Below, piece after piece: positions 28,110-62,379 of a stretch of DNA of 62,664 nucleotides. A program made the position numbers and the translations under genes. The stretch's first letter is position 1, and each line of letters opens with the position of its first letter. This DNA is from Candidatus Shapirobacteria bacterium (GTDB lineage: Bacteria > Patescibacteriota > Microgenomatia > UBA12405): NCBI GenBank assembly GCA_028704635.1, contig JAQWFB010000006.1:1-62664 (forward strand), written 5' to 3'. Below the pieces are notes generated by a model. That model was given only the letters and a program-made list of their open reading frames with translations, had not been told where the DNA came from and did not search any database.

Positions 28110-28913
28110 ATGAAAGAAAAACATTCTGTCATTTTGTTTAATCAAAAACGAATTCGTCGTTTATATGATGATGAAAAAGAATTATGGTATTTTTCTATTG
28201 TTGATATCGTGGCTGTTTTAACTGATAGTTTTGATCCGCGAAAATATTGGAATAAGCTATCGCAAAGGCTAAGACAAGAAGGCAGCGAGGTGGTGACAAA
28301 TTGTCACCAACTGAAATTAATCGCATCCGATGGTAAAAAATATCTCACCGATTGTGCTGATACAGAAACCGTTTTAAGAATTATTCAGACCATTCCCTCA
28401 CCAAAAGCCGAACCATTTAAACTTTGGTTAGCCCAAGTCGGTTATGAACGAATTGAAGAAACAGAAGATCCAGAGCTCGCTTTTGATCGAGCCATGAAAA
28501 CCTATTTACAAAAAGGTTATTCAAAAGAATGGATAAATCAGCGTTTAAAAAGTATTGAAGTTCGAAAAGAATTAACTGATGAATGGCAAAATCGAGGGGT
28601 AAAAGAAGGTTTAGAATTTGCCATACTTACGGATGAAATTACTAAAGCTTGGGCCGACAGAAGTATTAAAGATTATAAAAAATTTAAAGGATTAAAAAAA
28701 GAAAATCTTCGCGACAATATGACTAATTTGGAATTAGTTCTAAACATGTTGGCTGAAGTCTCAACAACAGAAATTTCCAAAAAACAAAAACCAATTGGAT
28801 TAATTCAAAATAAAATAATTGCCAAAAAAGGTGGAAGTGTTGCCAAAAAAGCCAGAATCGAAATAGAAGAACAAACCGGAGAAAGTGTGATTAAAAACCT
28901 TAGTGTAAAATAA
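28110..28913 (+). CDS. Bro-N domain / DinD-like DNA-damage-inducible protein
   Basis: 267 aa. The N-terminal ELWYFSIVDIVAVLTDS..PRKYWNKL is Bro-N-like, followed by the AEPFKLWLAQVGYERIEE..ELTDEW pattern seen in DinD-type proteins. Confidence 0.6.
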   Translation: MKEKHSVILFNQKRIRRLYDDEKELWYFSIVDIVAVLTDSFDPRKYWNKLSQRLRQEGSEVVTNCHQLKLIASDGKKYLTDCADTETVLRIIQTIPSPKAEPFKLWLAQVGYERIEETEDPELAFDRAMKTYLQKGYSKEWINQRLKSIEVRKELTDEWQNRGVKEGLEFAILTDEITKAWADRSIKDYKKFKGLKKENLRDNMTNLELVLNMLAEVSTTEISKKQKPIGLIQNKIIAKKGGSVAKKARIEIEEQTGESVIKNLSVK

Positions 28914-28916
28914 CCT

Positions 28917-30116
28917 ATGACTCTTGTTTACATCCTCTTAATTCTAATTCTCATCGCCCAGGTTTATTTAATTTCTAAATCAAAAACAACCGATAATACG
29001 GCCCAATTAATTAAAGAACTCGATAAAATCCAACTCAAATTAGAAAATTCCATCAAACAGGATTTTTCTTTAAACCGCCAAGAATTAAACGGTTCTTTTA
29101 ACAATTTCTCCATCAAACTCGACAAACTTATCACCAGTATCAACACCATTTTAAATCAAGTCCGCGAATCCATCGAAAAACGACTTGAATTAATTCAAAA
29201 AGATAATTCTGTCCAACTCGAAAAAATGCGGGTTACCGTCGATGAAAAATTACAAAGCACTTTAGAAAAAAGATTAGGGGAATCATTTAAACAAGTCAGC
29301 ACTCAATTAGAATCAGTTTATAAAGGTTTAGGTGAAATGCAAAATTTAGCCGTCGGTGTCGGCGATCTTAAAAAAGTTTTATCCAATATCAAAGTTCGTG
29401 GCACTTGGGGTGAAGTTCAATTAGAAAATTTACTCGATCAATTTTTGATTAAAGACCAATACGAAACCAACGTGGCTGTTAAACATGGCAGTAATGATCG
29501 AGTCGAATTTGCCATCAAACTTCCCGGCAAAAAAGAAGGCGAAAAACCATGTCTTTTACCTATCGATTGTAAATTTCCTTTAGAGGATTATCAAAATTTA
29601 ATTAAAGCTCAAGAAAAAGGGGATTTAATTCAAATCGAAGTTTCTGAAAAAGCCCTGGAAAATCGGCTCAAAAAAGAAGCTAAAGACATTTTTGATAAAT
29701 ATCTCGATCCACCTCACACCACTGATTTTGCCATTCTTTATCTTCCCGTTGAAGGCCTCTATGCTGAAATTGCCCAAAAACCGGGATTAGTTGATTCACT
29801 TCAGCGCCAATACCGAGTCACCATTTCTGGCCCCACCACTATCACTGCCATCCTTAACAGTTTTCAAATGGGTTTCAGAACTTTAGCTGTCGAAAAAAGA
29901 TCGTCCGAAGTTTGGATGGTTTTAAACAGTATTAAAAAGGAATTCGGAGTTTTTGGTGATTTATTAACCAAAACTCAAAAGAAACTTCAGGAAGCTAGTA
30001 ATGTTATTGAAGATGCCAGTTCTAAATCTCACACTATTGTTAGTAAATTAAACAAAGTTCAAAGTTTACCTCAGCCAACTAATCCAGAAGAATTAATTGA
30101 AGCTATTCATGAATAA
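28917..30116 (+). CDS. rmuC: DNA recombination protein RmuC
   Basis: 399 aa with an N-terminal TM and a long coiled coil. RGTWGEVQLENLL and DFAILYLPVEGLYAE are RmuC hallmarks. Confidence 0.85.
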   Translation: MTLVYILLILILIAQVYLISKSKTTDNTAQLIKELDKIQLKLENSIKQDFSLNRQELNGSFNNFSIKLDKLITSINTILNQVRESIEKRLELIQKDNSVQLEKMRVTVDEKLQSTLEKRLGESFKQVSTQLESVYKGLGEMQNLAVGVGDLKKVLSNIKVRGTWGEVQLENLLDQFLIKDQYETNVAVKHGSNDRVEFAIKLPGKKEGEKPCLLPIDCKFPLEDYQNLIKAQEKGDLIQIEVSEKALENRLKKEAKDIFDKYLDPPHTTDFAILYLPVEGLYAEIAQKPGLVDSLQRQYRVTISGPTTITAILNSFQMGFRTLAVEKRSSEVWMVLNSIKKEFGVFGDLLTKTQKKLQEASNVIEDASSKSHTIVSKLNKVQSLPQPTNPEELIEAIHE

Positions 30117-46867: not shown

Positions 46868-46871
46868 AGAA

Positions 46872-47447
46872 TTATTTTTGCCAATTAATAGGATTATTTT
46901 TAATATATTGACGTATATTATTTAATTCTATTTCGGATTTGATAATTTGATCATAATAACGACTTTGCCAGCCAAAAAATAAATTATTTTGATTACAAAT
47001 TCGCTTTACTGATGATTTATATTGATTAATGATTTTTGGAATGGTTTGATTAGATTTAATCGCTAATCGATGAAAATGATAATTTTGATATTTTATTTGT
47101 AGAGACGCACCATGGCGCGTCTCTACATGATTATCAAGCGTTTCCACGCTTTTATCTGGCGTCTCTACAAGGAATAGAATATGCACATGATTTGGCATAA
47201 CAATAAATTCATCCAAAATTACATTTGAAAAATGTTTATAAATATCAATTAAATATTGATTTGCAATTTCACCAATAGTTGATAATTCCATTTTATTATT
47301 AATAATTTTTCCAAAGAAATTATTATCGTTTAACGTTTTTATAGTAATAAAATAAAAACCTGGTGTAGAATAATCCCAATTATTTAATCTTGATGATTTT
47401 GTTTTAAATTTATCGGCAAATTTTTCAGGATTTTGAATATCAGACAC
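46872..47447 (-). CDS. IS200-like Y1 (HUH) transposase, REP-associated tyrosine transposase (RAYT)-like
   Basis: 191 aa. It has an HUH motif in MPNHVHILF and the C-terminal GWQSRYYDQIIKSEIELNNIRQYIKNNPINW typical of RAYT/IS200 TnpA. There is no tnpB and no flanking IS ends. The segment VETPDKSVETLDNHVETRHGASLQ is encoded by REP-like palindrome copies. Confidence 0.75.
   Translation of the reverse strand: MSDIQNPEKFADKFKTKSSRLNNWDYSTPGFYFITIKTLNDNNFFGKIINNKMELSTIGEIANQYLIDIYKHFSNVILDEFIVMPNHVHILFLVETPDKSVETLDNHVETRHGASLQIKYQNYHFHRLAIKSNQTIPKIINQYKSSVKRICNQNNLFFGWQSRYYDQIIKSEIELNNIRQYIKNNPINWQK
47098..47127. repeat. 30-bp REP-like palindrome inside the RAYT-like gene
   Basis: TGTAGAGACGCACCATGGCGCGTCTCTACA. 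Its reverse complement (the coding strand) is 30/30 identical to 35352-35381 and encodes VETRHGASLQ. Confidence 0.85.
47158..47169. repeat. Additional REP half-site (GGCGTCTCTACA) inside the RAYT-like gene
   Basis: Exact match to one palindrome arm. A degenerate copy (GTGGAAACG on the coding strand) lies between it and the full palindrome. Confidence 0.6.
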
Positions 47448-47795
47448 ATATTATTATTGCAATATTTATTACATATCTACAATATTAAAAAAATTAACCA
47501 AATAAACCCAATAAAATAAATTAATTCTTTAATAAAATTTGTAAATAATATAAAACTTTTCATAAATGGTTCAATATGGCTAGACCAAAAACTTGGACTT
47601 TTTTTAAAAAGCCCGAACTTTTGGTTTAAATTACTAACTCGTTGTTCCATATTTACTTATACAAAAAGATACTTTCGGTTATCAAGTTTTGATCTTTTAA
47701 CAATAAAAAAGTATCAGATAATCCTCTAACGCTGAGAATATAACACACGTTTTTCTTTTAAAGTAAATAGGTTTAAAAATACGTTATAATAAGCC

Positions 47796-52108: not shown

Positions 52109-52421
52109 TTCTGAAAAAAAATCTGACCCAAAATCAAACTCTGGTTTTATGTTTGGTCTAACCTTAGGTGCTGCTGTTGGTGCCCTTTCGGCAATTGTAG
52201 TTAATAAAAGTAACGAAACCGAAGTTATTAAAAATTTTGAATCCAAAATAAAAGAATTTTTTCAGGATTTGGTCAGTGAAGCCAAATCTAAAAAAGAAGT
52301 TGCAAAAAAAATCGAAACCATTGATACTTGGGGAGAAATAGAAAAAGAGGAACCAGAAAAACCACGTGTTGTCATCAAAAGGAAATCCACTCCCAAGATG
52401 TTTGTCAAACCAAAAAGGTAA
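52101..52421 (+). CDS. YtxH-like protein
   Basis: 106 aa. GFMFGLTLGAAVGALSAIV glycine-zipper TM followed by a charged helix. Confidence 0.5.
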   Translation: MTNSEKKSDPKSNSGFMFGLTLGAAVGALSAIVVNKSNETEVIKNFESKIKEFFQDLVSEAKSKKEVAKKIETIDTWGEIEKEEPEKPRVVIKRKSTPKMFVKPKR

Positions 52422-52450
52422 GGAAGATGTTAAAAGTCTATCCTATAGTA

Positions 52451-52479
52451 TTGACTTTTTATTTAATTTGTCCTACAAT
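52451..52479 (+). promoter_or_regulatory. Sigma-70-type promoter of the small-ORF cassette
   Basis: TTGACT (52451-52456), a 17-nt spacer, then TACAAT (52474-52479). Confidence 0.6.
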
Positions 52480-52595
52480 CCCACTAATTATCATTAAATG
52501 GCTCTAGTGCTTTTATTGATAAAGTACCTTTAAAATCTAGAGAAACGTTTGTGCCGAAAATTGGGAGTAATAATTTATTCCTAGCTTTCGGCATA

Positions 52596-52628
52596 AACCG
52601 AAAAAATAAAAAAAGAAAAGGCGGTAAT
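52596..52628 (+). repeat. 33-nt A-rich leader motif, copy A (AACCGAAAAAATAAAAAAAGAAAAGGCGGTAAT)
   Basis: 33/33 identical to 52992-53024. It ends 4 nt before an ATG and contains the SD-like AAAGGCGG. Confidence 0.85.
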
Positions 52629-52632
52629 AGAA

Positions 52633-52767
52633 ATGGAATATCATTTAATTAGATTAACTTGTGCGATAGTTTTAATTTTCTCAACGTTAACCCTTGTTGC
52701 GTTAACAAAAACATTTGGTTTTTTAGTACTAGAGGAAATATGGGAGCTGTTTATGTTGTCGTGGTAA
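52633..52767 (+). CDS. Small hydrophobic peptide (44 aa), cassette ORF A
   Basis: Manual translation: MEYHLIRLTCAIVLIFSTLTLVALTKTFGFLVLEEIWELFMLSW. It is preceded by leader copy A and falls below the ORF-track size cutoff. Confidence 0.4.
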   Translation: MEYHLIRLTCAIVLIFSTLTLVALTKTFGFLVLEEIWELFMLSW

Positions 52768-52819
52768 TTTTATTTATCACTTCAACAACAGGGATAATAT
52801 TATCCTATTTTTAGGGATA

Positions 52820-52848
52820 AACCAAAAAATAAAAAAGAAAGGTGGCCT
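52820..52848 (+). repeat. Diverged copy B of the A-rich leader motif
   Basis: AACCAAAAAATAAAAAAGAAAGGTGGCCT aligns with copies A and C with a few indels/substitutions. An ATG follows at 52853. Confidence 0.6.
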
Positions 52849-52852
52849 TGAG

Positions 52853-53005
52853 ATGACTTTTATAATTTTAATAATACTTATAATAATATCCATAATTTTT
52901 ATAGCGGCACGCAATTTTCTTATTTCCATGTTTCTTTTTGAAGCCGATGATATTGATGTCTACAAATACTATAAACATTATGAACTAATGCAACCGAAAA
53001 AATAA
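52853..53005 (+). CDS. Small membrane peptide (50 aa), cassette ORF B
   Basis: Manual translation: MTFIILIILIIISIIFIAARNFLISMFLFEADDIDVYKYYKHYELMQPKK. Its last codons and stop lie inside leader copy C. Confidence 0.4.
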   Translation: MTFIILIILIIISIIFIAARNFLISMFLFEADDIDVYKYYKHYELMQPKK

Positions 53006-53024
53006 AAAAAGAAAAGGCGGTAAT
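52992..53024 (+). repeat. 33-nt A-rich leader motif, copy C
   Basis: Identical to copy A. It is followed 4 nt later by ATG at 53029. Confidence 0.85.
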
Positions 53025-53028
53025 GATA

Positions 53029-53529
53029 ATGACATATTATAATTACTATTACACCCCAGTATCGTATGCCCCATGTTTTTTAATGTTATTACTAAGTTTT
53101 GTAATGTTGTTTCTTTCTCTTATGTCCTTCCGTCTTAGTAAAAGCACCACAGGCGATATTTTTTATATACAAAAATATTATAGTTCAAAACAACAAGCAG
53201 TCGGTCAAACCAATATAAAGTTGAAAAAAAATAAACTTTTATGTTTTCCAAATCCAATAGCTGTAACTTTTATTGCAAAAAAAGAATTTACAGTTTTAGT
53301 TAAAAATCACGGATCAATAAGAGAGGTTTCGGCATATCAAAAAGATGATCATTTTTTAGCAGAAGGAAAAGCAATAGAATTTAAAAATTATACAACAAAA
53401 GTAAATTGTTCATTTTATTTTCGGGGAGAATATTCGATTAATACTCTACGTGTCGCCGGAGATGTAATTTTATTTGCAATAATAATACTTTTAACCATAA
53501 TTTCCATATTATGGATATTTCTACATTAA
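53029..53529 (+). CDS. Hypothetical membrane protein (166 aa; N- and C-terminal TM segments), cassette ORF C
   Basis: ORF-track protein (listed from 53023). ATG at 53029 gives the same 4-nt spacing from the leader motif as ORF A. Tyr-rich N-terminus (TYYNYYYTPVSY). Confidence 0.55.
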   Translation: MTYYNYYYTPVSYAPCFLMLLLSFVMLFLSLMSFRLSKSTTGDIFYIQKYYSSKQQAVGQTNIKLKKNKLLCFPNPIAVTFIAKKEFTVLVKNHGSIREVSAYQKDDHFLAEGKAIEFKNYTTKVNCSFYFRGEYSINTLRVAGDVILFAIIILLTIISILWIFLH

Positions 53530-53552
53530 CTTTTTATTTCTCTAATTTTTTA

Positions 53553-53600
53553 GCCGGCAGGTCAATGTATAAAATACATCCTGTCGGCCTTTTCTTTTTT
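53553..53600 (+). terminator. Intrinsic terminator of the small-ORF cassette
   Basis: GCCGGCAGG..ATGTAT-AAA-ATACAT..CCTGTCGGC stem followed by CTTTTCTTTTTT. Confidence 0.7.
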
Positions 53601-53617
53601 ATTAAATTAATTAGACT

Positions 53618-53645
53618 GTAGAGACGTTCTGCAGAACGTCTCTAC
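53618..53645. repeat. Perfect 28-bp REP-like palindrome GTAGAGACGTTCTGCAGAACGTCTCTAC
   Basis: Exact self-complement with the same GTAGAGACG arms as the copies at 33335, 35352 and 47098. It lies between the cassette terminator and the alaS promoter. Confidence 0.85.
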
Positions 53646-53660
53646 TTAAATCAAAAATAT

Positions 53661-53676: not shown

Positions 53677-55485
53677 ATGAAAGCCCGTGATTTAAAGGAA
53701 AAATTCATCAATTTTTTTGTTGCCCAAAAACATATCGAAATTCCCTCGGCCAGTTTAACTCCAGAAAATGACCCAACCACTCTTTTTATTTCCGCCGGCA
53801 TGCATCCTTTAGTTCCCTATCTTTTAGGCCAACCTCATCCACTTGGCAAAAGATTAACTGATGTTCAAAAATGCGTCAGAACAGGTGACATCGACGAAGT
53901 TGGTGATGGTTACCATCACACTTTTTTTGAAATGTTAGGTAATTGGAGTCTTGGTGATTATTTTAAGACTGAAGCAATTTCTTGGAGCTACCAATTTCTG
54001 ACCAAAGAATTAAATATCGACCCTAAAAACCTTCATTTTACCTGCTTTGAGGGTGATCAAGATGCCCCAAAAGACACCGAATCCCATGATCTTTGGTTAA
54101 AACAAGGAATTCCAGAAGAAAGAATTCATTACTTACCTAAAAAAGATAATTGGTGGGGTCCAGCTGGCAGTGTTGGCCCTTGTGGTCCAGACACCGAAAT
54201 GTTTATTGATACTAATCCAAATATCGGAGAAATTGATTTTCAAACTGGTTGTAAACAGGGGAGAATTATTGAAATTTGGAACGATGTTTTCATGCAATAT
54301 TACAAAGATGAAAATGGTAAATTTTCCGAAATGAAGCAAAAAAATGTCGATACTGGTATGGGTGTTGAACGAACCACAGCAATTTTGTCGGGTTTTTCGG
54401 ACAATTATTTATCCGACATCTGGCAACCAATAATTAAAGCAATTGAAGTATTTACTCCAAAAAAATATGAAGATAACCCAAAAATTTTTAGAATCATAGC
54501 TGATCATCTTAAAGCTGCCGTTTTTATTATTGCTGATGGTGTCGAACCATCAAACAAAGAAGCAGGGTATGTTCTCCGTCGTCTCATCCGTCGAGCTGTC
54601 CGACAAGGAAAATTATTGGGAATCGAAAATAATTTTACTGTTCCAATCGCCACAGCTATTTTGAAAAATCAGGGCAACTATGCCGGAGTTTATTTGGAAT
54701 TAAATCAAAATAGAGACCGTATTTTTTCGGTTTTAGAAAATGAAGAAAATAAATTTAGAAAAACTTTAAACAATGGTCTTCGCGAAATCAATAAATTAAT
54801 CGAAAATAAAAAAATTAAATCAATAAAAAATCAAGATAATTCTTTACTAAATATTAGCGGTAAAGAAGCTTTTACTCTTTATGAAAGTTTCGGTTTTCCA
54901 ATTGAAATGGTCGAAGAAGAACTACAAAAAAATAATTTAACCTTAAATAAGGAAGAATTTGAAGAAGCAAAATTAGCTCATCAAAAGCAGTCTCAGACTT
55001 TGTCTGCTGGCAAATTCAAGTCCGGTCTAGCAAATAATTCTGAAATTATTACTAAATATCACACCGCCACTCATTTATTACATTCTGCTTTAAGAAAAAT
55101 TTTAGGGGACAACGTTCAACAATCAGGTTCCAATATCACTTCCGAAAGGTTGCGTTTCGATTTTTCTCATTCTGAAAAATTAACTGACGACCAATTAAAA
55201 GAAGTGCAAGATTTAGTTAATCAGCAAATAAAATTAGATTTACCAGTCGTTATTGAAACCATGCCTTTTGTTGAAGCTCAAAAACAAAATGCTCTGGCTT
55301 TCTTTGGTAATAAATATCCGGAAACTGTCACCGTTTATACTATTGGTTCGGCAGAAAATTATTTTTCCAAAGAAGTTTGCACTGGTCCTCATGTGACTCG
55401 TTTATCCGAGTTAGGAAATTTTGAAATAATTAAAGAAGAATCTGCTGGTTCTGGCAAACGTCGTATTTACGCCATCTTAAAATAA
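53677..55485 (+). CDS. alaS: Alanyl-tRNA synthetase (short form without C-Ala domain)
   Basis: 602 aa. FFVAQKHIEIPSASL, FTNAGM-like (FISAGMHP), RTGDIDEVGDGYHHTFFEMLGNWS, and the editing-domain motifs HTATHLLHSALR and CTGPHV. Confidence 0.92.
   Translation: MKARDLKEKFINFFVAQKHIEIPSASLTPENDPTTLFISAGMHPLVPYLLGQPHPLGKRLTDVQKCVRTGDIDEVGDGYHHTFFEMLGNWSLGDYFKTEAISWSYQFLTKELNIDPKNLHFTCFEGDQDAPKDTESHDLWLKQGIPEERIHYLPKKDNWWGPAGSVGPCGPDTEMFIDTNPNIGEIDFQTGCKQGRIIEIWNDVFMQYYKDENGKFSEMKQKNVDTGMGVERTTAILSGFSDNYLSDIWQPIIKAIEVFTPKKYEDNPKIFRIIADHLKAAVFIIADGVEPSNKEAGYVLRRLIRRAVRQGKLLGIENNFTVPIATAILKNQGNYAGVYLELNQNRDRIFSVLENEENKFRKTLNNGLREINKLIENKKIKSIKNQDNSLLNISGKEAFTLYESFGFPIEMVEEELQKNNLTLNKEEFEEAKLAHQKQSQTLSAGKFKSGLANNSEIITKYHTATHLLHSALRKILGDNVQQSGSNITSERLRFDFSHSEKLTDDQLKEVQDLVNQQIKLDLPVVIETMPFVEAQKQNALAFFGNKYPETVTVYTIGSAENYFSKEVCTGPHVTRLSELGNFEIIKEESAGSGKRRIYAILK
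55465..55484 (+). repeat. Direct repeat copy 1: last 20 nt of alaS (ATTTACGCCATCTTAAAATA)
   Basis: Perfectly repeated at 58871-58890. It encodes IYAILK plus the first two bases of the stop codon. Confidence 0.9.
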
Positions 55486-55514
55486 TAAATATATTAATTA
55501 AAAATATTTTCTTT

Positions 55515-55889
55515 ATGAAAACATTAAAATTAAAAAATGGGAAATATTTTCATGGACAATATGAAAATAATGAAAAAACTAAAGGGTGGTTTATTGGATC
55601 ATTTTTTGACAAAGGTAATTATTGTAAGACAGATAAATTAGAAATAATGTATTGCTTTCATAAAAAAGGCGACATTATTGAAACTCATTATCACAAGAAA
55701 AAAGTTGAGTTGTTAATAATCCTTCAAGGAAGTGCAAAATATACCATTAATGGCAAAGATATTCTTTTAAAGAAAGGCGATTTTCTTTTTATAGATGTGA
55801 ATAATTTAATTTCTGGTGAATTTATTAAACCTTCAAAAATTTTTGCTATTCATTCCCCAAGTATTCCAAGTGATAAATTTAAACCCTAG
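55515..55889 (+). CDS. Cupin-domain protein
   Basis: 124 aa. KGWFIGSFF..ETHYHKKKVELLIILQGSAKYTINGKDILLKKGDFLFI is a cupin metal-site-like pattern (HxH...E). Confidence 0.55.
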   Translation: MKTLKLKNGKYFHGQYENNEKTKGWFIGSFFDKGNYCKTDKLEIMYCFHKKGDIIETHYHKKKVELLIILQGSAKYTINGKDILLKKGDFLFIDVNNLISGEFIKPSKIFAIHSPSIPSDKFKP

Positions 55890-55928
55890 TTATAATTTAT
55901 ATGTAATAAATACACATTTAATAAAATA

Positions 55929-55956
55929 TTGATTTTTACCTGTCTTGTGGTAGAAT
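55929..55956 (+). promoter_or_regulatory. Promoter of the radical SAM operon
   Basis: TTGATT (55929-55934), a 16-nt spacer ending in TG, then TAGAAT (55951-55956). It lies 13 nt upstream of the ATG at 55970. Confidence 0.5.
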
Positions 55957-55969
55957 TTAACGAAATAGA

Positions 55970-56818
55970 ATGAAAATAAGAACAAAGCCAGATGTCGATA
56001 GTGTTGGTAAATATATAGTTTTTATTGAAGATTGTAAAAACCCTTCTGATTTAGATCTTTTTTTAGAAAAAAATAAAGGTTTATTTTCTAAATTTTATAT
56101 TAATTCAATTTTTAAAAATAAAATTAAAAGCAATTTAAATATAAATTGGCTTACTAAAGAAAAAATAAAAGAAAAATATAAAGAAGATATAATCATACCT
56201 AAATGGATTTTAGTAGAAGATAATTTTAAAAAAATTATATCTGGAAAATGGAATGAAATAATGCCTATTACGGCCGAATTTACTCCTACCTTAAATTGTA
56301 ATTTTAGATGTAATCAATGTTCTTACTCTGTTCCTAAACAAAAATTAGGTGTGTGGAAAAAGAAAAATTCAAAAGAATTTAGTTCTGATTTTGAAGGTCA
56401 AAATATTCATATGACACTAGAATCAGCAAAAAAAATTATAGACAAATTAAAATCTGGTGGAGTAAAAAATATTTTATTTACAGGCGGCGGGGAACCATTT
56501 ATTAATCCAGATGTGACAATAAAGGGTATGTTTTATGCCAAAGAAAAAGGGTTAATCATTGGTCTTTATAGTAACGGATCGTTGTTAAATAAAGAAATAA
56601 TTAAAGATATTTTTAAAATAAATCCTTTATTTATAAGAATTAGTATTTATGGCAGTAACCCAGAAAGTTTTTCTAAATATACAAATCAATCACCAAAATT
56701 ATATAGTCGTGTCCTTGAAAATGTTAGGCTATTAGCTCAAGAGAAAATAAAAACTAAATCATCAACTCAAATTGGGTTGTCTTTTTTTACTCCATCCAGA
56801 TACTACAGAAGATCTTGA
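55970..56818 (+). CDS. Radical SAM enzyme, N-terminal fragment (frameshifted at a T7 run)
   Basis: CNFRCNQC (CxxxCxxC) cluster after a roughly 100-aa N-terminal extension, plus ILFTGGGEPFINPD (SAM-binding GGE motif). The frame terminates 30 nt after the T7 tract at 56782-56788. Confidence 0.75.
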   Translation: MKIRTKPDVDSVGKYIVFIEDCKNPSDLDLFLEKNKGLFSKFYINSIFKNKIKSNLNINWLTKEKIKEKYKEDIIIPKWILVEDNFKKIISGKWNEIMPITAEFTPTLNCNFRCNQCSYSVPKQKLGVWKKKNSKEFSSDFEGQNIHMTLESAKKIIDKLKSGGVKNILFTGGGEPFINPDVTIKGMFYAKEKGLIIGLYSNGSLLNKEIIKDIFKINPLFIRISIYGSNPESFSKYTNQSPKLYSRVLENVRLLAQEKIKTKSSTQIGLSFFTPSRYYRRS

Positions 56819-57410
56819 TCAAATTGAAAAATATTTAGCGAAAACATTATCTTTAAACGAATTAAAAGTAATTAATTCTTGTCGTTTTACACCGGCCGTT
56901 GATTATTTTGGAGGCCCACAACATTCAGACGAAACAATGAGAAAAATCTTTCTTTTTATTAAAAAAAATATTAAATCAAAATTAGAAAAATACGGAATTG
57001 ATGTTAAATTGTACTTCCACCGATTAAATGATCTTAACAAGAAAAAAACTTATAAAAAATGTAGAGCATCGGGATGGTATTTAGAAGTTGGTCCTTCTGG
57101 AGATGTGTTTATTTGTTGCGAAAAACTTTTTTCTGATGATAGTAAAATTGGTAATCTAAAAAATCAATCAATTAAAGATATCTATAAAAGTGATTTGAGA
57201 AAAAAAATAATTAACAATGTTGATTTTTGTGAATGTAAAGAATGTCCACCAGTCTGTAAGCCTCATGAACTCAATAAAATTTTTAATAATATTGATACCT
57301 TAATTAAGGGAGGAAATACTGATTCTATAAAAAAATGGAGGAATGATATTTTAGAACGTGGGGAAAATGTTAATCATTTTGCTGGTAAGCTAAATGATTT
57401 TGAAAGTTAA
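56772..57410 (+). CDS. Radical SAM enzyme, C-terminal fragment with SPASM/twitch-like Cys cluster
   Basis: It continues the barrel (LLHPDTTEDL...). The Cys cluster reads CRASGWYLEVGPSGDVFICC...IGNLKNQSIKDIY...CECKECPPVC. Removing one T from the T7 run fuses it in-frame to the upstream fragment (..QIGLSFLLHPDTTEDL..). Confidence 0.7.
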   Translation: MGCLFLLHPDTTEDLDQIEKYLAKTLSLNELKVINSCRFTPAVDYFGGPQHSDETMRKIFLFIKKNIKSKLEKYGIDVKLYFHRLNDLNKKKTYKKCRASGWYLEVGPSGDVFICCEKLFSDDSKIGNLKNQSIKDIYKSDLRKKIINNVDFCECKECPPVCKPHELNKIFNNIDTLIKGGNTDSIKKWRNDILERGENVNHFAGKLNDFES

Positions 57411-57425
57411 AAATTTAAAAAAAAT

Positions 57426-58085
57426 ATGAATAAAGAAAATGATAAAAATTCTGAGAGTAATCAAAGTAGTTCAATTTTTGAAAAACTTGATAATCAAAGA
57501 AAAGAATTAGGGTTTTTCACTATAGGTGAATTATTAGAGTTAAGTGACCGTAAAAATATTATTTTAGATCCGATGTCTACCCTTATTAGTAAGGATGCTA
57601 ATATTGGTTCAGAAAACATTTTTTACCCCAATACTATTATTGAAAAACAAGGTGGTGGAACTATAGAAATAGGTAGTAAAAACATTTTTTACCCACAAAC
57701 TTTTATTGTCGCTAGTTTAGGAAAAATAAAAATTGGAAATGGTAATCAGTTTGGAGATGGTGGTTTGAGTATTAAAGCAAATTATCCAAATACAGACATT
57801 TCAATTGGGAATAATTGTAGGTTGTTAAATGGTGTGCAGATATTAGGAATAACACATTTAGGTTCAGGATCACAGATAATAGGAGGCCAATTAACAGTCC
57901 AGGATTGTTTTTTAGAAGACGGTAAAGACTTTACATTTCCAGATACTGACGAAAGAGGTGGTGTTATTAAAGGTTTTGGTTTAATAAGAAATATCAAAAT
58001 AGAAAAAGGTAAAGTTATCAACGGACAAGGCTCTTTTGACCAGTCAATGGTACAAGATCAGTCCTTTTATCATCCCAAAAAATAA
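57426..58085 (+). CDS. Left-handed beta-helix (hexapeptide-repeat) transferase-like protein
   Basis: 219 aa with repeated [LIV]-G-x4 turns: ANIGSENIFYPNTIIE, IEIGSKNIFYPQTFIV, IKIGNGNQFGDGGLSI, ISIGNNCRLLNGVQIL, THLGSGSQIIGG. Confidence 0.55.
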   Translation: MNKENDKNSESNQSSSIFEKLDNQRKELGFFTIGELLELSDRKNIILDPMSTLISKDANIGSENIFYPNTIIEKQGGGTIEIGSKNIFYPQTFIVASLGKIKIGNGNQFGDGGLSIKANYPNTDISIGNNCRLLNGVQILGITHLGSGSQIIGGQLTVQDCFLEDGKDFTFPDTDERGGVIKGFGLIRNIKIEKGKVINGQGSFDQSMVQDQSFYHPKK

Positions 58086-58086
58086 C

Positions 58087-58863
58087 ATGAAATCAGTTGA
58101 ATTAGGTCTCGGTTTAATAGGTATTGGACGAGAATGGGGGAATATACCTTCTCCTATTCCAAATGAAACTGAAGCAACGGAATTTCTTAAAAAATCAGTT
58201 GACCTTGGCATTTTATTTTTAGATACCGCACCAGCATACGGTTCTAGTGAAAAAAAATTAGGAATTTTTTTAAAGACATTAAGTGATGGAGAAAGACAAA
58301 GTTTAACCGTATCAACAAAATTTGGCGAACATTGGGATGAAAATAACAATCAATCGTATGTGGATCATTCATATGAAGCTTTATGTCGAAGCATAGACAA
58401 AAGTATAAATATTCTTGGAAAAATAGATCTTTTACAGCTACATAAATCAAATCCAGATGTATTAATTAGTCGAGATTTTTTCAGATCATTAGATTATGCC
58501 AGGAAAAAAGGTATTTTTGAATTTGGAGCAAGCGTTAGTGATCTCATTTCTGGAGAAATTGCAATTAGATCTAAAGATATTTCTGTTATACAAATACCGT
58601 TTAACGAGTCCAACCAAAGTTTGGAAAAATTAATAGATTTGTCGATTATAAACAATAAAACACTAATTATAAACAGACCATTTAATTCCGGAAAAAATAT
58701 ATTACCTGACACAACTAAGGAAGAAAAAAAGATAACTTTAATCAATTCATTTAGGTTTATTCTAAAAAAGCCATTTTATGGTTTTATATTAACTGGAACT
58801 ACATCAATCGATCATCTTAAGGAAAATATAGAGGCTTTTAATAAAGCAAAAGAGGAAATATAA
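58087..58863 (+). CDS. Aldo/keto reductase family oxidoreductase
   Basis: 258 aa from ATG at 58087. LGLGLIGIGREWG, FLDTAPAYGSSE (the AKR D..Y motif region), and LLQLHK. Confidence 0.7.
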   Translation: MKSVELGLGLIGIGREWGNIPSPIPNETEATEFLKKSVDLGILFLDTAPAYGSSEKKLGIFLKTLSDGERQSLTVSTKFGEHWDENNNQSYVDHSYEALCRSIDKSINILGKIDLLQLHKSNPDVLISRDFFRSLDYARKKGIFEFGASVSDLISGEIAIRSKDISVIQIPFNESNQSLEKLIDLSIINNKTLIINRPFNSGKNILPDTTKEEKKITLINSFRFILKKPFYGFILTGTTSIDHLKENIEAFNKAKEEI

Positions 58864-58870
58864 AATTTTC

Positions 58871-58890
58871 ATTTACGCCATCTTAAAATA
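58871..58890 (+). repeat. Direct repeat copy 2 (pseudo 3' end of alaS)
   Basis: 20/20 identical to 55465-55484. It again reads IYAILK followed by a stop (TAG). Confidence 0.9.
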
Positions 58891-58924
58891 GGCTAAATCG
58901 TCAAAAATATTGTATCCTTACATA

Positions 58925-61096
58925 ATGGGGATTAATAGTTTTTGGTTATTTTATATCGAGGCCGACAGTATTTTAGTGGCCTTAATTAATTGGGGAAATG
59001 GCCGTTTTTATGTTGCTTCAATTGGTCCTCGTGTTGCTTTTAATATCAATAATCCTTCATCAATCGCCAAAGCCGCTGACGAATCACTTTCCAGTGCAGC
59101 CATCAGTGCTGATATTTCTCCTGAGCAAGAGCCTCTTTTTGTTGGTTTAGTTATTCCATCTTCTTGGGTTGGTGAAGACGGAAAAATTGTCAAAGAAAAA
59201 TCGGAAATAATTTTACCTCTACTAAAAGAATTAGATCTGAAACCTTCAGGCTTCATGTCTAGCGATGAAGCCATAATTGAAGAATCAAGTAAGCCGGATG
59301 ATTTTCCCGCCAGTTTCATTAATATTTATTTAGAGTCAAATTCTTTTGAATTATCACTTGTTTACCTTGGAAAAATTAAAAAAAGAGTTAGAAAATTTTT
59401 TGATGGTGAATTTACTGCCCAATTAATTGAAGATACTTTATTAGAATTTAATTCCGAGTCAACTCTTCCTCCCCAAATTTATATTTATGGTAATGCTGAT
59501 GAATCAACCGTTGAAGAATTAAAAAACTTTTCCTGGGTTGGCAAAAAAAATGTCGAAACTTTTCTCCATTTTCCCGACATTAAACTTTATCGCGATGAAG
59601 ATTTAGTCAATATTTTTTTTAAAGCCATCACTTCTCAAATGATTGGCGGTGGTAATCCTTCTCATCAATCAGTTCCGTCAATTCCTCCTGAAGAACCTGA
59701 AGAAAAAGAGAATGAAACACAAGAAGACATTGAAACTCCTGACGAAATTATTAACAATGATTCAGATATTTATGATGCAGAAATAACAGAAAATATAGAA
59801 GAAGTTTCTCCTGAAAATTTAGGTTTTACTAAAGAACAACCCAAAGAAGAATTTATTGAAGTCCCCATTATTCCCGAAACTCCAGTTTTTGAAACCAATA
59901 TTCCTTCCCGCAAACCATCCATTCCATTTTCTTTTCCAAAAATAAATTTTAAATTACCCAAACTAAAAACAAATTTTTTAATTTTTCTTCTTCCCGTTGC
60001 ATTAATTTTAATTTTTCTTCTTATCTTTTTTTCCAAAGCAAAAATTATTCTTTTTTTAACTCCCTATGAATTTGAAAAAACTATCAATATAACTTTAGAT
60101 TCAGATGCTACAGAAATTTCTTCATCAATTATTCCAGTTGAAAAAAAGGATGCAGATGTCAGTTCTTCTATTACTGTAGAAACCACAGGCCAGAAAACTG
60201 TTGGAACCAAAGCAACTGGTGAAGTCACTATCTTTAATAAATTAGAAAAAGTCCAAAATATTCCCAAAGGTTCAATTTTAACCGATTCCAATGGCCAAAA
60301 ATTTGAATTAATTAACAGTGTTCAGGTCGCTGCTGCTGTTATTAACTACAACACCGGCACCATGAATTTTGGTCAAACCAAAACTTCTTTATCTGCCTTA
60401 GATATCGGTTCAGAATATAATATTAGTAAAGATGTCGCTTTAACATTTAAAGATTTTTCAGAAAATTCCATCGTAGTTAAAAGTAATACCACTTTTGCTG
60501 GCGGCACTAAAGAACAAGTCAGAGCTGTTAGTAAACAAGATAAATCTAAAGCTGAAAGTCAATTAACTCAAAAATTAGCCGATGAAGCTGATAAAAAAAT
60601 AAGCGAAGAGCTCAATAATTCTAGTGATATTTTAAAAGAAACTATTCAAGTCAAAAAAGGCAAAATCGAATTTAACCGTGAAGTTGACGAGCAAACCGAC
60701 GAATTAACTGCCACAGCCCAATCAACAGTTAGTGTTTTTGCTATTAATTCAGAAATAAAAAACAAAATTATCGAGCAATTTTTATCTCAGGAAAGTGGCT
60801 ACTCTGACTCCGATAAAAATCCAGAATCCTTTGTTTTTACCTTTAAAATTAGTAAATTAGACACAGATCAAGCCACCGGTAGTTTAACCGTTAAAGGTTC
60901 TTCATTACCCAAAATTGACACTGCCACCCTTAAAAAGAATATTGCTGGAAAGACGGTCAAAAATGCTCAAAAAATTATTAAAAAGACCATTAGCAGGGTC
61001 TATGATTTTAATATTCAAACCAATTCTAAATTATTAAATATTTTACCTTTCAATAAAAACAATATTTCTATTGACGTAAAAATCAAATCAAAGTGA
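58925..61096 (+). CDS. Large bitopic membrane protein: cytoplasmic N-domain, acidic linker, TM, extracellular Baseplate_J-like domain
   Basis: About 723 aa from ATG at 58925, with a TM at FLIFLLPVALILIFLLIFF. The extracellular ATGEVTIFNKLEKVQNIPKGSILTDSNGQKFEL...GSEYNI...FAGGTKEQVRAVS resembles the gp47/baseplate-J fold pattern. A GTGA overlap couples it to the sortase gene. Confidence 0.4.
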   Translation: MGINSFWLFYIEADSILVALINWGNGRFYVASIGPRVAFNINNPSSIAKAADESLSSAAISADISPEQEPLFVGLVIPSSWVGEDGKIVKEKSEIILPLLKELDLKPSGFMSSDEAIIEESSKPDDFPASFINIYLESNSFELSLVYLGKIKKRVRKFFDGEFTAQLIEDTLLEFNSESTLPPQIYIYGNADESTVEELKNFSWVGKKNVETFLHFPDIKLYRDEDLVNIFFKAITSQMIGGGNPSHQSVPSIPPEEPEEKENETQEDIETPDEIINNDSDIYDAEITENIEEVSPENLGFTKEQPKEEFIEVPIIPETPVFETNIPSRKPSIPFSFPKINFKLPKLKTNFLIFLLPVALILIFLLIFFSKAKIILFLTPYEFEKTINITLDSDATEISSSIIPVEKKDADVSSSITVETTGQKTVGTKATGEVTIFNKLEKVQNIPKGSILTDSNGQKFELINSVQVAAAVINYNTGTMNFGQTKTSLSALDIGSEYNISKDVALTFKDFSENSIVVKSNTTFAGGTKEQVRAVSKQDKSKAESQLTQKLADEADKKISEELNNSSDILKETIQVKKGKIEFNREVDEQTDELTATAQSTVSVFAINSEIKNKIIEQFLSQESGYSDSDKNPESFVFTFKISKLDTDQATGSLTVKGSSLPKIDTATLKKNIAGKTVKNAQKIIKKTISRVYDFNIQTNSKLLNILPFNKNNISIDVKIKSK

Positions 61097-61812
61097 GTTA
61101 TATCTATCTTAAAAAAACACCACCAACTCCCAAAGCTAAGAAGTTAGCCCAAAAAAAAATATTAGCTCTTTCACTTTTATGTCTAGGGTTATTTTTTTTC
61201 GCCTCCGCCATTTTTCCTATTGTTAAATTCCAATTGCAATATTCCGTCAATTTTAATCAATTAATTAATCCATTGTCTCTTCAAAATTACAATAATTCTC
61301 AAAATATTTTAGGGTCAGCCACCACCGATTACACTCAAATTTCCAATTGGTTTGATTCAGATTCTTCCAATTCTAATCAAATTTTTTCTAACGATAAAAC
61401 TTTTACTTATCTTCTCTCTATTCCAAAATTAAAAATCAGCAACGCAGTTGTCACCGTTGGAAGTATGGATCTTAAAAAAAGTTTAATCCAATATCCTCAA
61501 ACTGCACTTCCAGGTCAATTAGGCAATACTGTTATTTTTGGACATTCTGTTCTACCTCAATTTTTCAATCCCAAGTCATATCTCACCATCTTTTCCACTC
61601 TCTACAAACTTGAACAAGGAGATGAAATTTTAATTGATTATGACAACGTTCAATACGAATATATTGTTGATGAAATGTTTGAAGTTAAACCCACCGATCT
61701 TTCGGTTTTAGAACAGCGTTTTGATCAAAAAAATTTAACACTCATCACCTGTAGCCCACCGGGGACATATCTTCGTCGTCTTATTATCAAAACTAGTCTT
61801 TCAGCCAAATAA
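61093..61812 (+). CDS. Sortase (cysteine transpeptidase)
   Basis: 239 aa with a GTG start and an N-terminal TM. The catalytic His is in TVIFGHSV, the Cys in LTLITCSPPG and the Arg in YLRRLII. Confidence 0.8.
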   Translation: MSYIYLKKTPPTPKAKKLAQKKILALSLLCLGLFFFASAIFPIVKFQLQYSVNFNQLINPLSLQNYNNSQNILGSATTDYTQISNWFDSDSSNSNQIFSNDKTFTYLLSIPKLKISNAVVTVGSMDLKKSLIQYPQTALPGQLGNTVIFGHSVLPQFFNPKSYLTIFSTLYKLEQGDEILIDYDNVQYEYIVDEMFEVKPTDLSVLEQRFDQKNLTLITCSPPGTYLRRLIIKTSLSAK

Positions 61813-62379
61813 AGTATTTATCAATTTAATTGATTCGATTTTATCTTCGTCATCCAACACTTCTAGCGTCAAATAATTTTGATAATTAATTTTATTTAAG
61901 AAATCAACTAATTTTTTAAAATCTAAATCACCTTTAAGATGAAGACCATAATGAGCCTTACCATTTTTAATGGCATTGTGAAAATGTATATCTTTAATTT
62001 TATCCTTATTATCGGTAATAAATTGATAAAAATCTTCACCATTTTGAATACAATGACCTATGTCCAGTGTGTAATTAATATTGGGAATTAATTTAGATAA
62101 ATTACCAAGTTCTTTAAGCATAGGGAAATGAATTTCAGCACCTCTACGAATAGGCATATTTTCAGTTGTTAAAATTATTTTTTCATTAGCATAATTAACT
62201 AACTTTTGAAAATTTTGTGAAAAAAATTCGCTAGCTTTTTTAGGAGTAGAATAAACAGGATATTTACCTGTATGAACGGTTATCAATTTGGCGTTTAAAG
62301 CAATAGATTGATCAATAGTTTTTTTAAGAATCTTAATACTAGCTTCATCGATCAATTTATGTCCAGAAACTAAAGACAT
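61801..62379 (-). CDS. Xylose-isomerase-like TIM-barrel protein (sugar phosphate isomerase/epimerase or AP endonuclease 2 family); true N-terminus probably further upstream
   Basis: ITVHTG, ENMP, LDIGH, IHFHNA and YLTLEV motifs. The same frame stays open up to 62634 and encodes SKLGCREQWLKD...LEIWLEAD...LIIHAPFTS, the expected N-terminal strands, with no ATG/GTG/TTG. Confidence 0.65.
   Translation of the reverse strand: MSLVSGHKLIDEASIKILKKTIDQSIALNAKLITVHTGKYPVYSTPKKASEFFSQNFQKLVNYANEKIILTTENMPIRRGAEIHFPMLKELGNLSKLIPNINYTLDIGHCIQNGEDFYQFITDNKDKIKDIHFHNAIKNGKAHYGLHLKGDLDFKKLVDFLNKINYQNYLTLEVLDDEDKIESIKLINTLFG

Follow-up and report, generated by a model that had tools for sequence, protein, structure and literature searches.

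A 3.4-kb islet without a recombinase gene at the 3' end of alaS in Candidatus Shapirobacteria, transferred horizontally to the same nucleotide in distant hosts

Integration of mobile DNA into the tails of housekeeping genes, those of aminoacyl-tRNA synthetase (aaRS) genes included, is already known, and so are islands that are flanked by attachment (att) sites and carry no recombinase gene. In staphylococci, the staphylococcal cassette chromosome (SCC) and pseudo-SCC elements lie at the 3' end of rlmH (orfX) between repeats of ~15-20 bp, and the pseudo-SCC elements may lack a recombinase. SCC elements are moved by the Ccr large serine recombinases, often encoded in a neighbouring cassette. Streptococcal integrative and conjugative elements (ICEs) use the 3' end of lysS as integration site, and their repeats equal the last 17 bp of this gene (PMC4701971). 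Cis-mobilizable elements (CIMEs) keep attL and attR after the loss of their integration and transfer genes (PMC5704250), and the integrase-less MccH47 island of Escherichia coli is moved by trans-acting functions (PMC3191183). In the candidate phyla radiation (CPR, or Patescibacteria), horizontal transfer shapes metabolism, and genomic islands have been predicted by IslandViewer4 in a text that deals with neither integrases nor direct repeats (PMC12455944). Here we describe a locus of a Candidatus Shapirobacteria bacterium, located in a stretch of 62,664 nucleotides that was analysed as a whole and is called the window (contig JAQWFB010000006.1, assembly GCA_028704635.1). An islet of four genes (55485-58870) is inserted at the very end of alaS, the alanine-tRNA ligase gene, between two copies of a 20-nt direct repeat derived from the tail of that gene. 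CPR genomes are tiny, and the alaS locus provides a case of transfer resolved to the nucleotide, with an exact target, exact islet ends, and both empty and occupied sites. Our analysis inclines, with modest confidence, towards a cargo-only, horizontally mobile and att-flanked islet that is moved by site-specific recombination acting in trans.

The target gene alaS (53677-55485, plus strand) encodes a protein of 602 residues (Pfam tRNA-synt_2c, 2.9e-131, and tRNA_SAD). Its nearest matches are 74-83% identical, and those that bear a name belong to Candidatus Shapirobacteria. The repeat, ATTTACGCCATCTTAAAATA, occurs as exact copies at 55465-55484 and 58871-58890, both on the plus strand, and encloses an insert of 3,386 bp. 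A third copy is absent from the window, even at 3 mismatches. Shuffled sequences give an expectation of 0.05 matches for this 20-mer, and two matches or more were returned by 0 of 100 shuffles. The left, attL-like copy comprises the last 20 nt of alaS and reads ATT TAC GCC ATC TTA AAA TA, that is IYAILK and the TA of the stop codon. The last A of the alaS TAA is therefore supplied by the insert, of which it is the first base (55485). The right, attR-like copy lies 7 nt (AATTTTC) past the TAA (58861-58863) of the aldo/keto reductase gene that ends the islet; it also reads IYAILK, then TAG (58889-58891), and is now non-coding. An initial annotation, made from the sequence and its open reading frames (ORFs), had described this perfect repeat of the alaS 3' end and the position and reading of its second copy, and both descriptions are confirmed, the former by the shuffles as well. 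Within the window, identity ends abruptly at both edges of the 20 nt. The ancestral right flank (58891-61096, plus strand) follows, with a conserved 34-nt spacer (GGCTAAATCG...) and a gene of the 723/728-residue type without Pfam match (58910-61096). Among the matches listed, 72 unrelated alaS loci from other phyla (~50% identity, of no use for synteny) served as a chance control. None of these 72 has a displaced tail repeat like that of the window within 10 kb of alaS, and their sole repeat of at least 14 nt, a 17-mer in L049 located 8 nt beyond the stop codon, is probably an artefact of overlapping search windows.

The empty site is found in five related lineages (L002/L093, L091, L003-L005, L006, and L099-L102). 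Their gene order is alaS, a homologue of the 58910-61096 gene (723-726 residues), a sortase gene, and ruvX. The gap between alaS and the right gene measures ~34 nt in four of the five lineages, and in the fifth the start of the right gene overlaps the alaS stop codon. The empty-site alaS ends in a single copy of the repeat or in a lineage-specific equivalent. A single exact 20-mer is found in L002 and in L091, and TAG and the right flank of the window come next (in L002, ...cgtcgtATTTACGCCATCTTAAAATAGGCGAAATCGTCAAAAATATTGTATCC). L091 equals this flank over 80 nt past the repeat, and in a BLAST comparison of L002 with the window the 20 nt align to both window copies. Because L002 and L091 read the 20-mer, TAG and the same flank, the TAG copy is the original end of alaS and 55485-58870 is the insertion, with limits set by the synteny breaks and the empty sites. 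The initial annotation had taken the second copy for a gene end displaced by an insertion and had suggested looking for relatives in which alaS is directly followed by the 58891 flank; five lineages have this arrangement and bear the proposal out. A common dispersed repeat would have refuted it, and the 20-mer is not dispersed, either in the window or in the Joint Genome Institute (JGI) metagenome contigs.

The islet is compositionally foreign. Its GC content is 27.0%, as compared with 32.6% in the remaining window, and is the lowest among all 3.4-kb windows (mean 32.3%, sd 2.8). The GC skew reaches +0.168, while non-overlapping windows elsewhere average -0.077 (sd 0.073, maximum +0.045), and its tetranucleotide distance falls in the top 3.4%. 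The four genes had been judged by eye to be more AT-rich than their flanks, which is correct, and the distinction extends to skew and tetranucleotides.

Occupied sites were reached via the 90% cluster of the radical SAM protein encoded by the second islet gene. The same four genes lie between alaS and a gene of 725-728 residues in L095-L098 (GCA_028701825.1 and three read-set assemblies) and in L107-L109 (three assemblies). The left and right repeats of L095 (ATCTACGCCGTCTTAAAACA and ATTTACGCCGTCTTAAAATA) match at 18/20 positions and those of L107 (ATTTACGCGATATTAAAATA and TATTACGCCATCCTAAAATA) at 15/20, as compared with 20/20 in the window. In all three lineages the islet starts directly past ...TAAAA(T/C)A, hence at the same junction, and alaS remains open to its stop codon. 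The L107 flanks are saturated with substitutions relative to the window, with third-position identities of 45-56%. Compared with the window and L095, the flanking genes of L107 are 71-73% identical in nucleotides for alaS (55-56% at third codon positions), 56% for the 728-residue protein gene (45%) and 67% for the sortase gene (45-47%); ruvX and yceG, compared with L095 only, reach 66% and 62.5%. The islet genes in between are far closer, with 90% for the cupin gene (82-85% at third codon positions), 88-91% for the radical SAM gene (79-82%), 87-94% for the beta-helix gene (75-88%) and 79-82% for the reductase gene (64-70%). Sliding-window identity of L107 climbs from ~70% to ~90% within 50 nt of the left repeat and is 42-62% past the right one. 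Since vertical descent cannot yield such a gap in silent sites between neighbouring genes, the islet crossed lineages and did so to the same nucleotide. It is horizontally mobile and landed at the same site in distant hosts. Chimeric L107 contigs are an unlikely cause, because three independent assemblies (L107, L108, and L109) agree.

These data bear on the idea that the four genes are an old resident operon, vertically inherited, whose patchiness reflects repeated precise deletions between the repeats without any transfer. The window and L095 islets, which are 87-88.5% identical, are about as diverged as their flanks (83-88.5%), as vertical inheritance would have it, and a deletion between 20-nt direct repeats would restore a perfect empty site. 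However, the third-position identities of L107 contradict it, at 75-88% for three islet genes and 64-70% for the reductase gene against 45-56% for the flanks. The islet tree also groups L095, L107 and L007, in conflict with host relationships: the L095 islet is closer to the L107 and L007 islets than to that of the window, even though the L095 host itself is by far a nearer relative of the window. The foreign composition and an ectopic copy of the islet in L103, described below, likewise oppose purely vertical descent, which we regard as hardly credible.

For the pair formed by the window and L095, of similar divergence inside and outside the islet, the sites informative for the window, L095 and the empty-site lineage L002 conflict and give a near-trichotomy. 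The two lineages may have gained the islet separately, or an ancestor may have gained it once and L002 lost it. A tract of 212 nt in the reductase gene (58357-58568) differs by one base between the window and L095, whereas the remaining gene is ~13% diverged, which suggests that the two islets exchanged sequence very recently. The alaS gene itself is a recombination mosaic when the window is compared with L095, L002, and L003. In the segment 53900-54450, L095 is only 64-69% identical to the window and L002, while the latter two are 82-91% identical; in 54550-54700 the window is the odd one out; and in 54750-55150 the identity of the window and L095 is 90-96%. Taken as a whole, alaS has diverged further than the neighbouring ftsK and 728-residue protein genes. 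In the 700 nt of alaS beside the islet, the closest pair is that of the window and L095; immediately to the right of the islet, it is that of the window and L002.

Integrase, resolvase, transposase and excisionase domains are all absent from the islet, in which Pfam identifies only cupin, radical SAM/SPASM, hexapeptide and aldo/keto reductase domains; the domain search thus agrees with the initial annotation, which had seen no integrase, transposase or excisionase between the repeats. Among the window ORFs of at least 100 residues, no recombinase domain is found, and the only mobility-related product is a Y1/RAYT-like one (RAYT, REP-associated tyrosine transposase); the genes at 41.7-51.8 kb were identified via the gene tables of relatives. 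For the genes up to 10 kb from the islet in three islet-bearing lineages, L095 and L107 among them, precomputed Pfam tables report no recombinase. Remnants of ICEs or of integrative and mobilizable elements (IMEs), or a tandem partner, are likewise absent from the window, L095 and L107, where the islet consists of four tightly packed metabolic genes. In phage, plasmid and viral contigs, the 20-mer and two cargo proteins, the radical SAM enzyme and the reductase, were used as queries and returned only distant radical SAM enzymes. A phage or plasmid origin is without any sign, because the viral contigs and the phage and plasmid databases contain no close relatives.

We propose that a Campbell-type site-specific recombination would join the alaS tail, acting as attB, to an alaS-tail-like attP carried by a circular form of the islet. 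In this circle, attP would sit between the reductase stop codon and the cupin start codon, and the predicted junctions are ...AAACGTCGTATTTACGCCATCTTAAAATAGGCTAAATCGTC... for attB and ...GGAAATATAAAATTTTCATTTACGCCATCTTAAAATAATAAATATATTAATTAAAA... for attP. Integration would preserve alaS except for the last base of its stop codon, where A replaces G, and the old tail would persist as the non-coding right repeat. Without a recombinase gene in the islet, the enzyme must come from elsewhere and act in trans; the host may provide it, or a helper element of identical site specificity may do so. Among close relatives, the islet would also be gained or lost by ordinary homologous recombination via the flanks. 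The repeats had been annotated as an att-like footprint of integration into the alaS 3' end; the insertion is supported, while the action of a recombinase and the circular intermediate are what we infer from this footprint. Three observations favour site-specific exchange. Three lineages share one junction even though the identical runs of the flanks at the junctions are only 8-14 nt; the alaS gene of L107 contains no donor-type tract to the left of the repeat; and the right repeat of L107 (TATTACGCCATCCTAAAATA) has 3 mismatches to the window-type alaS tail but 5 to the tail of L107 itself, which suggests that the repeat travels with the islet as attP.

Several results weigh against this proposal. 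Neither a recombinase nor a helper was found in the 62.7-kb window or in the 10-kb flanks of the relatives. An attP or circular junction was not found either: in the JGI metagenome contigs, the exact 20-mer returned two empty sites and two chance matches (L092 and L094), and the same scan did not return the occupied site. Nor is the 20-mer present in the viral contigs or within 21 kb of the ectopic L103 copy. The non-coding ends of the islet measure 30 nt and 7 nt, so that arm-type sites like those of lambda would need coding sequence. The dyad spanning attB, ATTTAcGCC ... GGCTAAAT, is weak and not significant (p about 0.14). A Xer/dif-dependent integrative element (IMEX) or dif module would have, at its junctions, a 28-nt dif-like site with two inverted 11-nt arms, for which this dyad is a possible candidate. 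To the right of the L107 repeat, 10 nt (AGCTAAATCG) are window-like; donor flank could therefore have come along, which is unexpected under clean excision. Lastly, high similarity has no sharp right edge, as identity in the reductase gene is only 79-82%.

Part of this evidence speaks for a route that is independent of any recombinase. The islet would have landed once beside alaS and would later have been copied between genomes, for example by transformation, as DNA carrying the alaS tail. Recombination, either RecA-dependent or RecA-independent, or homology-facilitated and illegitimate, would have used the 20-nt tail together with short conserved stretches of the right flank, and the repeat would be the recombining homology instead of a recombinase site. 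The missing recombinase and the window-like nucleotides past the L107 repeat fit such a route, as do the signs that homologous exchange is active here, namely the alaS mosaic among the window, L095 and L002 and the 212-nt reductase tract. The window also encodes type IV pilus assembly components (PilN and PilO), which is compatible with DNA uptake. Conversely, the L107 flanks are 56-73% identical to those of the window-type hosts, with identical runs (8-14 nt) far under the usual requirement of RecA-type recombination, and neither the junction at the same nucleotide in three lineages nor the lack of a donor-type tract in the L107 alaS is expected from it. We consider this route a serious, although less probable, rival.

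Alternatively, the 20 nt may be a target-site duplication left by a transposase-like or casposase-like enzyme with a 20-nt stagger, in which case both copies would stem from the recipient alaS tail. The identity of the two window copies and the G shared by both L095 copies at position 10 agree with this idea, although by our estimate the shared G lies within the expectation for parallel substitutions at such divergence. Casposons provide a parallel, as their insertion at the 3' end of a tRNA or EF-2 gene produces a duplication of 14-15 bp, and the window possesses a Y1/RAYT-like transposase ORF elsewhere (46872-47447). However, HUH/Y1 transposases are not known to make target duplications. Moreover, the islet is devoid of transposase, Cas1 and polymerase; terminal inverted repeats at its ends are no better than in shuffles (p about 0.11); and the right copy of L107 is nearer to the window-type tail than to the tail of its own alaS. 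A target-site duplication is accordingly improbable, and trans-acting site-specific recombination remains our preferred explanation.

A truncated and decayed copy of the islet, 83% identical to window positions 55491-57704, is present in L103-L106 (GCA_017991615.1 and three metagenomes). In L103 (9231-11445), it retains the cupin gene, the radical SAM gene in broken form and part of the third gene, and its left end falls within ~6 nt of the left end of the window islet. A peptidase S66 gene and a phosphodiesterase gene stand on either side, hence at a locus unrelated to alaS. A candidate attP remnant upstream of this copy was rejected, its alignment being no better than those of shuffles. A type II-like methyltransferase cluster is located 7 kb downstream of the copy, and the L103 organism is represented on many contigs, the protein being indexed in 129 blocks of the collection. 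More distant versions (~55% amino acid identity) of the radical SAM, unknown protein and reductase trio occur in other CPR contigs and in other contexts, and no direct repeats surround this trio in L008 and L009.

The islet genes all lie on the plus strand. The first one (55515-55889), which starts 30 nt past the repeat, encodes a Cupin_2 protein of 124 residues (Pfam, 5.2e-09) that matches quercetinase-type and mannose-6-phosphate-isomerase-type cupins in the PDB. The second one (55970-57410) encodes a radical SAM/SPASM enzyme (Pfam Radical_SAM and SPASM) and contains a +1 frameshift in a T7 run (56782-56788), which divides it into two ORFs (55970-56818 and 56772-57410). Minus one T, the gene encodes 479 residues that align in full to the intact database protein P0121, at 89% identity, and the homologous loci have T6 or T5 where the window has T7. 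The frameshift is shared by L001 (GCA_028681165.1), a second assembly of the same organism, in which 14,214 bases contain one difference from the window. It may represent a true pseudogene, a phase-variable tract or a homopolymer error common to both assemblies. The third gene (57426-58085) encodes a protein of 219 residues with weak similarity to left-handed beta-helices of the hexapeptide, GlmU/LpxA-like type (Pfam Hexapep, 0.0079; NCBIfam GlmU C-terminal region, 3.8e-06; PDB LpxA, 0.003). The last gene (58087-58863) encodes an aldo/keto reductase (AKR) of 258 residues as called in L001 (Pfam Aldo_ket_red, 3.8e-24; PDB 4exa, 1.4e-18), and an alternative TTG start at 58036 would extend it to 275 residues. 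The initial description of four co-oriented genes stands as to number and orientation, except that the radical SAM gene is split in two ORFs by the frameshift. The islet had also been credited with a promoter of its own, which is not confirmed: promoter-like sites are no commoner than chance, and this holds for the scan as a whole, including a candidate (TTTACG-18-TATATT, 55466-55495) that straddles the left junction.

Regarding function, the similarities are all of a generic kind. The reductase resembles sugar dehydrogenase-type AKRs, the cupin metal-binding cupins, and the 219-residue protein the acyltransferase portion of GlmU and LpxA. The radical SAM protein returns a sub-threshold match with the dTDP-aminosugar lyase DesII (46 bits, for a cut-off of 450 bits), and other SPASM enzymes match as well. 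Our best guess for the cargo is a small pathway that modifies sugars or small molecules; in this genome it appears to be decaying, as the radical SAM gene is frameshifted. A role as a defence system was rejected, since the viperin-like radical SAM matches are weak and sub-threshold only.

Other segments of the window differ from its relatives as well. Between the RNase J gene and a class II aaRS gene, a 0.9-kb insertion (46869-47775) is absent from L003 and L006. It contains the ORF on the minus strand (46872-47447) already mentioned, whose product resembles Y1/REP-associated tyrosine transposases (Pfam Y1_Tnp, 2.3e-06; NCBIfam RAYT, 7.9e-13, below cut-off), and GTTTAAA, which includes the RNase J stop codon, is found at both of its junctions. 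Upstream of alaS, a 1.24-kb segment (52417-53659) is absent from L002, L003, L006 and L095. This segment comprises an ORF of 168 residues without family match (53023-53529), at a place where L099 has an ORF of 174 residues, and it ends with a perfect 28-nt palindrome (GTAGAGACGTTCTGCAGAACGTCTCTAC, 53618-53645) that is unique in the window. Following the sortase gene, where all relatives have ruvX, the window has a gene on the minus strand (61801-62379) for a xylose-isomerase-like TIM-barrel protein (AP_endonuc_2), which is probably another insertion with its far end beyond the window. Finally, a gene for a protein with a BRO-N domain (28110-30113), a domain common in phage and virus proteins, lies beside an RmuC gene and may be a trace of other mobile DNA.

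The alaS locus documents that one and the same 3.4-kb operon passed between hosts with core genes at substitution saturation. The locus supplies attB and attP sequences with which a recombinase may be sought in an uncultured phylum, as well as a possible safe-harbour insertion site. A broader and doubtful idea is that the alaS tail of Shapirobacteria acts as a gene-capture site for small cargo-only operons provided with a 20-nt mimic of this tail, served by a chromosomal or as yet unrecognised recombination activity. If true, it would be a cassette system with an integron-like or SCC-like logic and a distinct mechanism, allowing insertion, excision and exchange across deeply divergent CPR lineages without a recombinase of the element itself.

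As compared with the described systems, an aaRS gene tail as integration target is not unprecedented, given lysS. The lysS ICEs and the islet share an aaRS gene tail as target, repeats derived from this tail and an essentially unchanged protein. In contrast with the islet, which targets alaS, these ICEs are large and possess their own tyrosine integrase and a conjugation module, neither of which the islet has. CIMEs of the ICESt1/ICESt3 type are alike in that their att repeats include the 3' end of a housekeeping gene, they hold cargo only and their recombinase comes from another element. However, CIMEs are decayed ICEs or IMEs that usually stand in tandem with a related functional element, whereas the islet shows no helper, remnant or tandem partner; it is also only 3.4 kb long, with non-coding ends of 30 nt and 7 nt, and resides in a CPR host. 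The MccH47 island is similarly small, flanked by direct repeats and devoid of genes for recombination proteins, yet it covers 13 kb, has long imperfect repeats with several crossover segments and was found mobile by experiment, while the mobility of the islet is deduced from comparative sequence. SCC and pseudo-SCC elements appear comparable in their use of the last codons of a housekeeping gene, in repeats that hold the gene end and in the existence of recombinase-less cargo cassettes. They differ in that a Ccr gene was not found for the islet and that alaS bears no cassette array or composite. Because no internal recombinase, helper or parent remnants were seen, the islet is placed with the CIME and pseudo-SCC kind by function and not as a full match. 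It belongs to the recombinase-less, att-flanked islands, of which the alaS target and the host phylum are new and the category is not.

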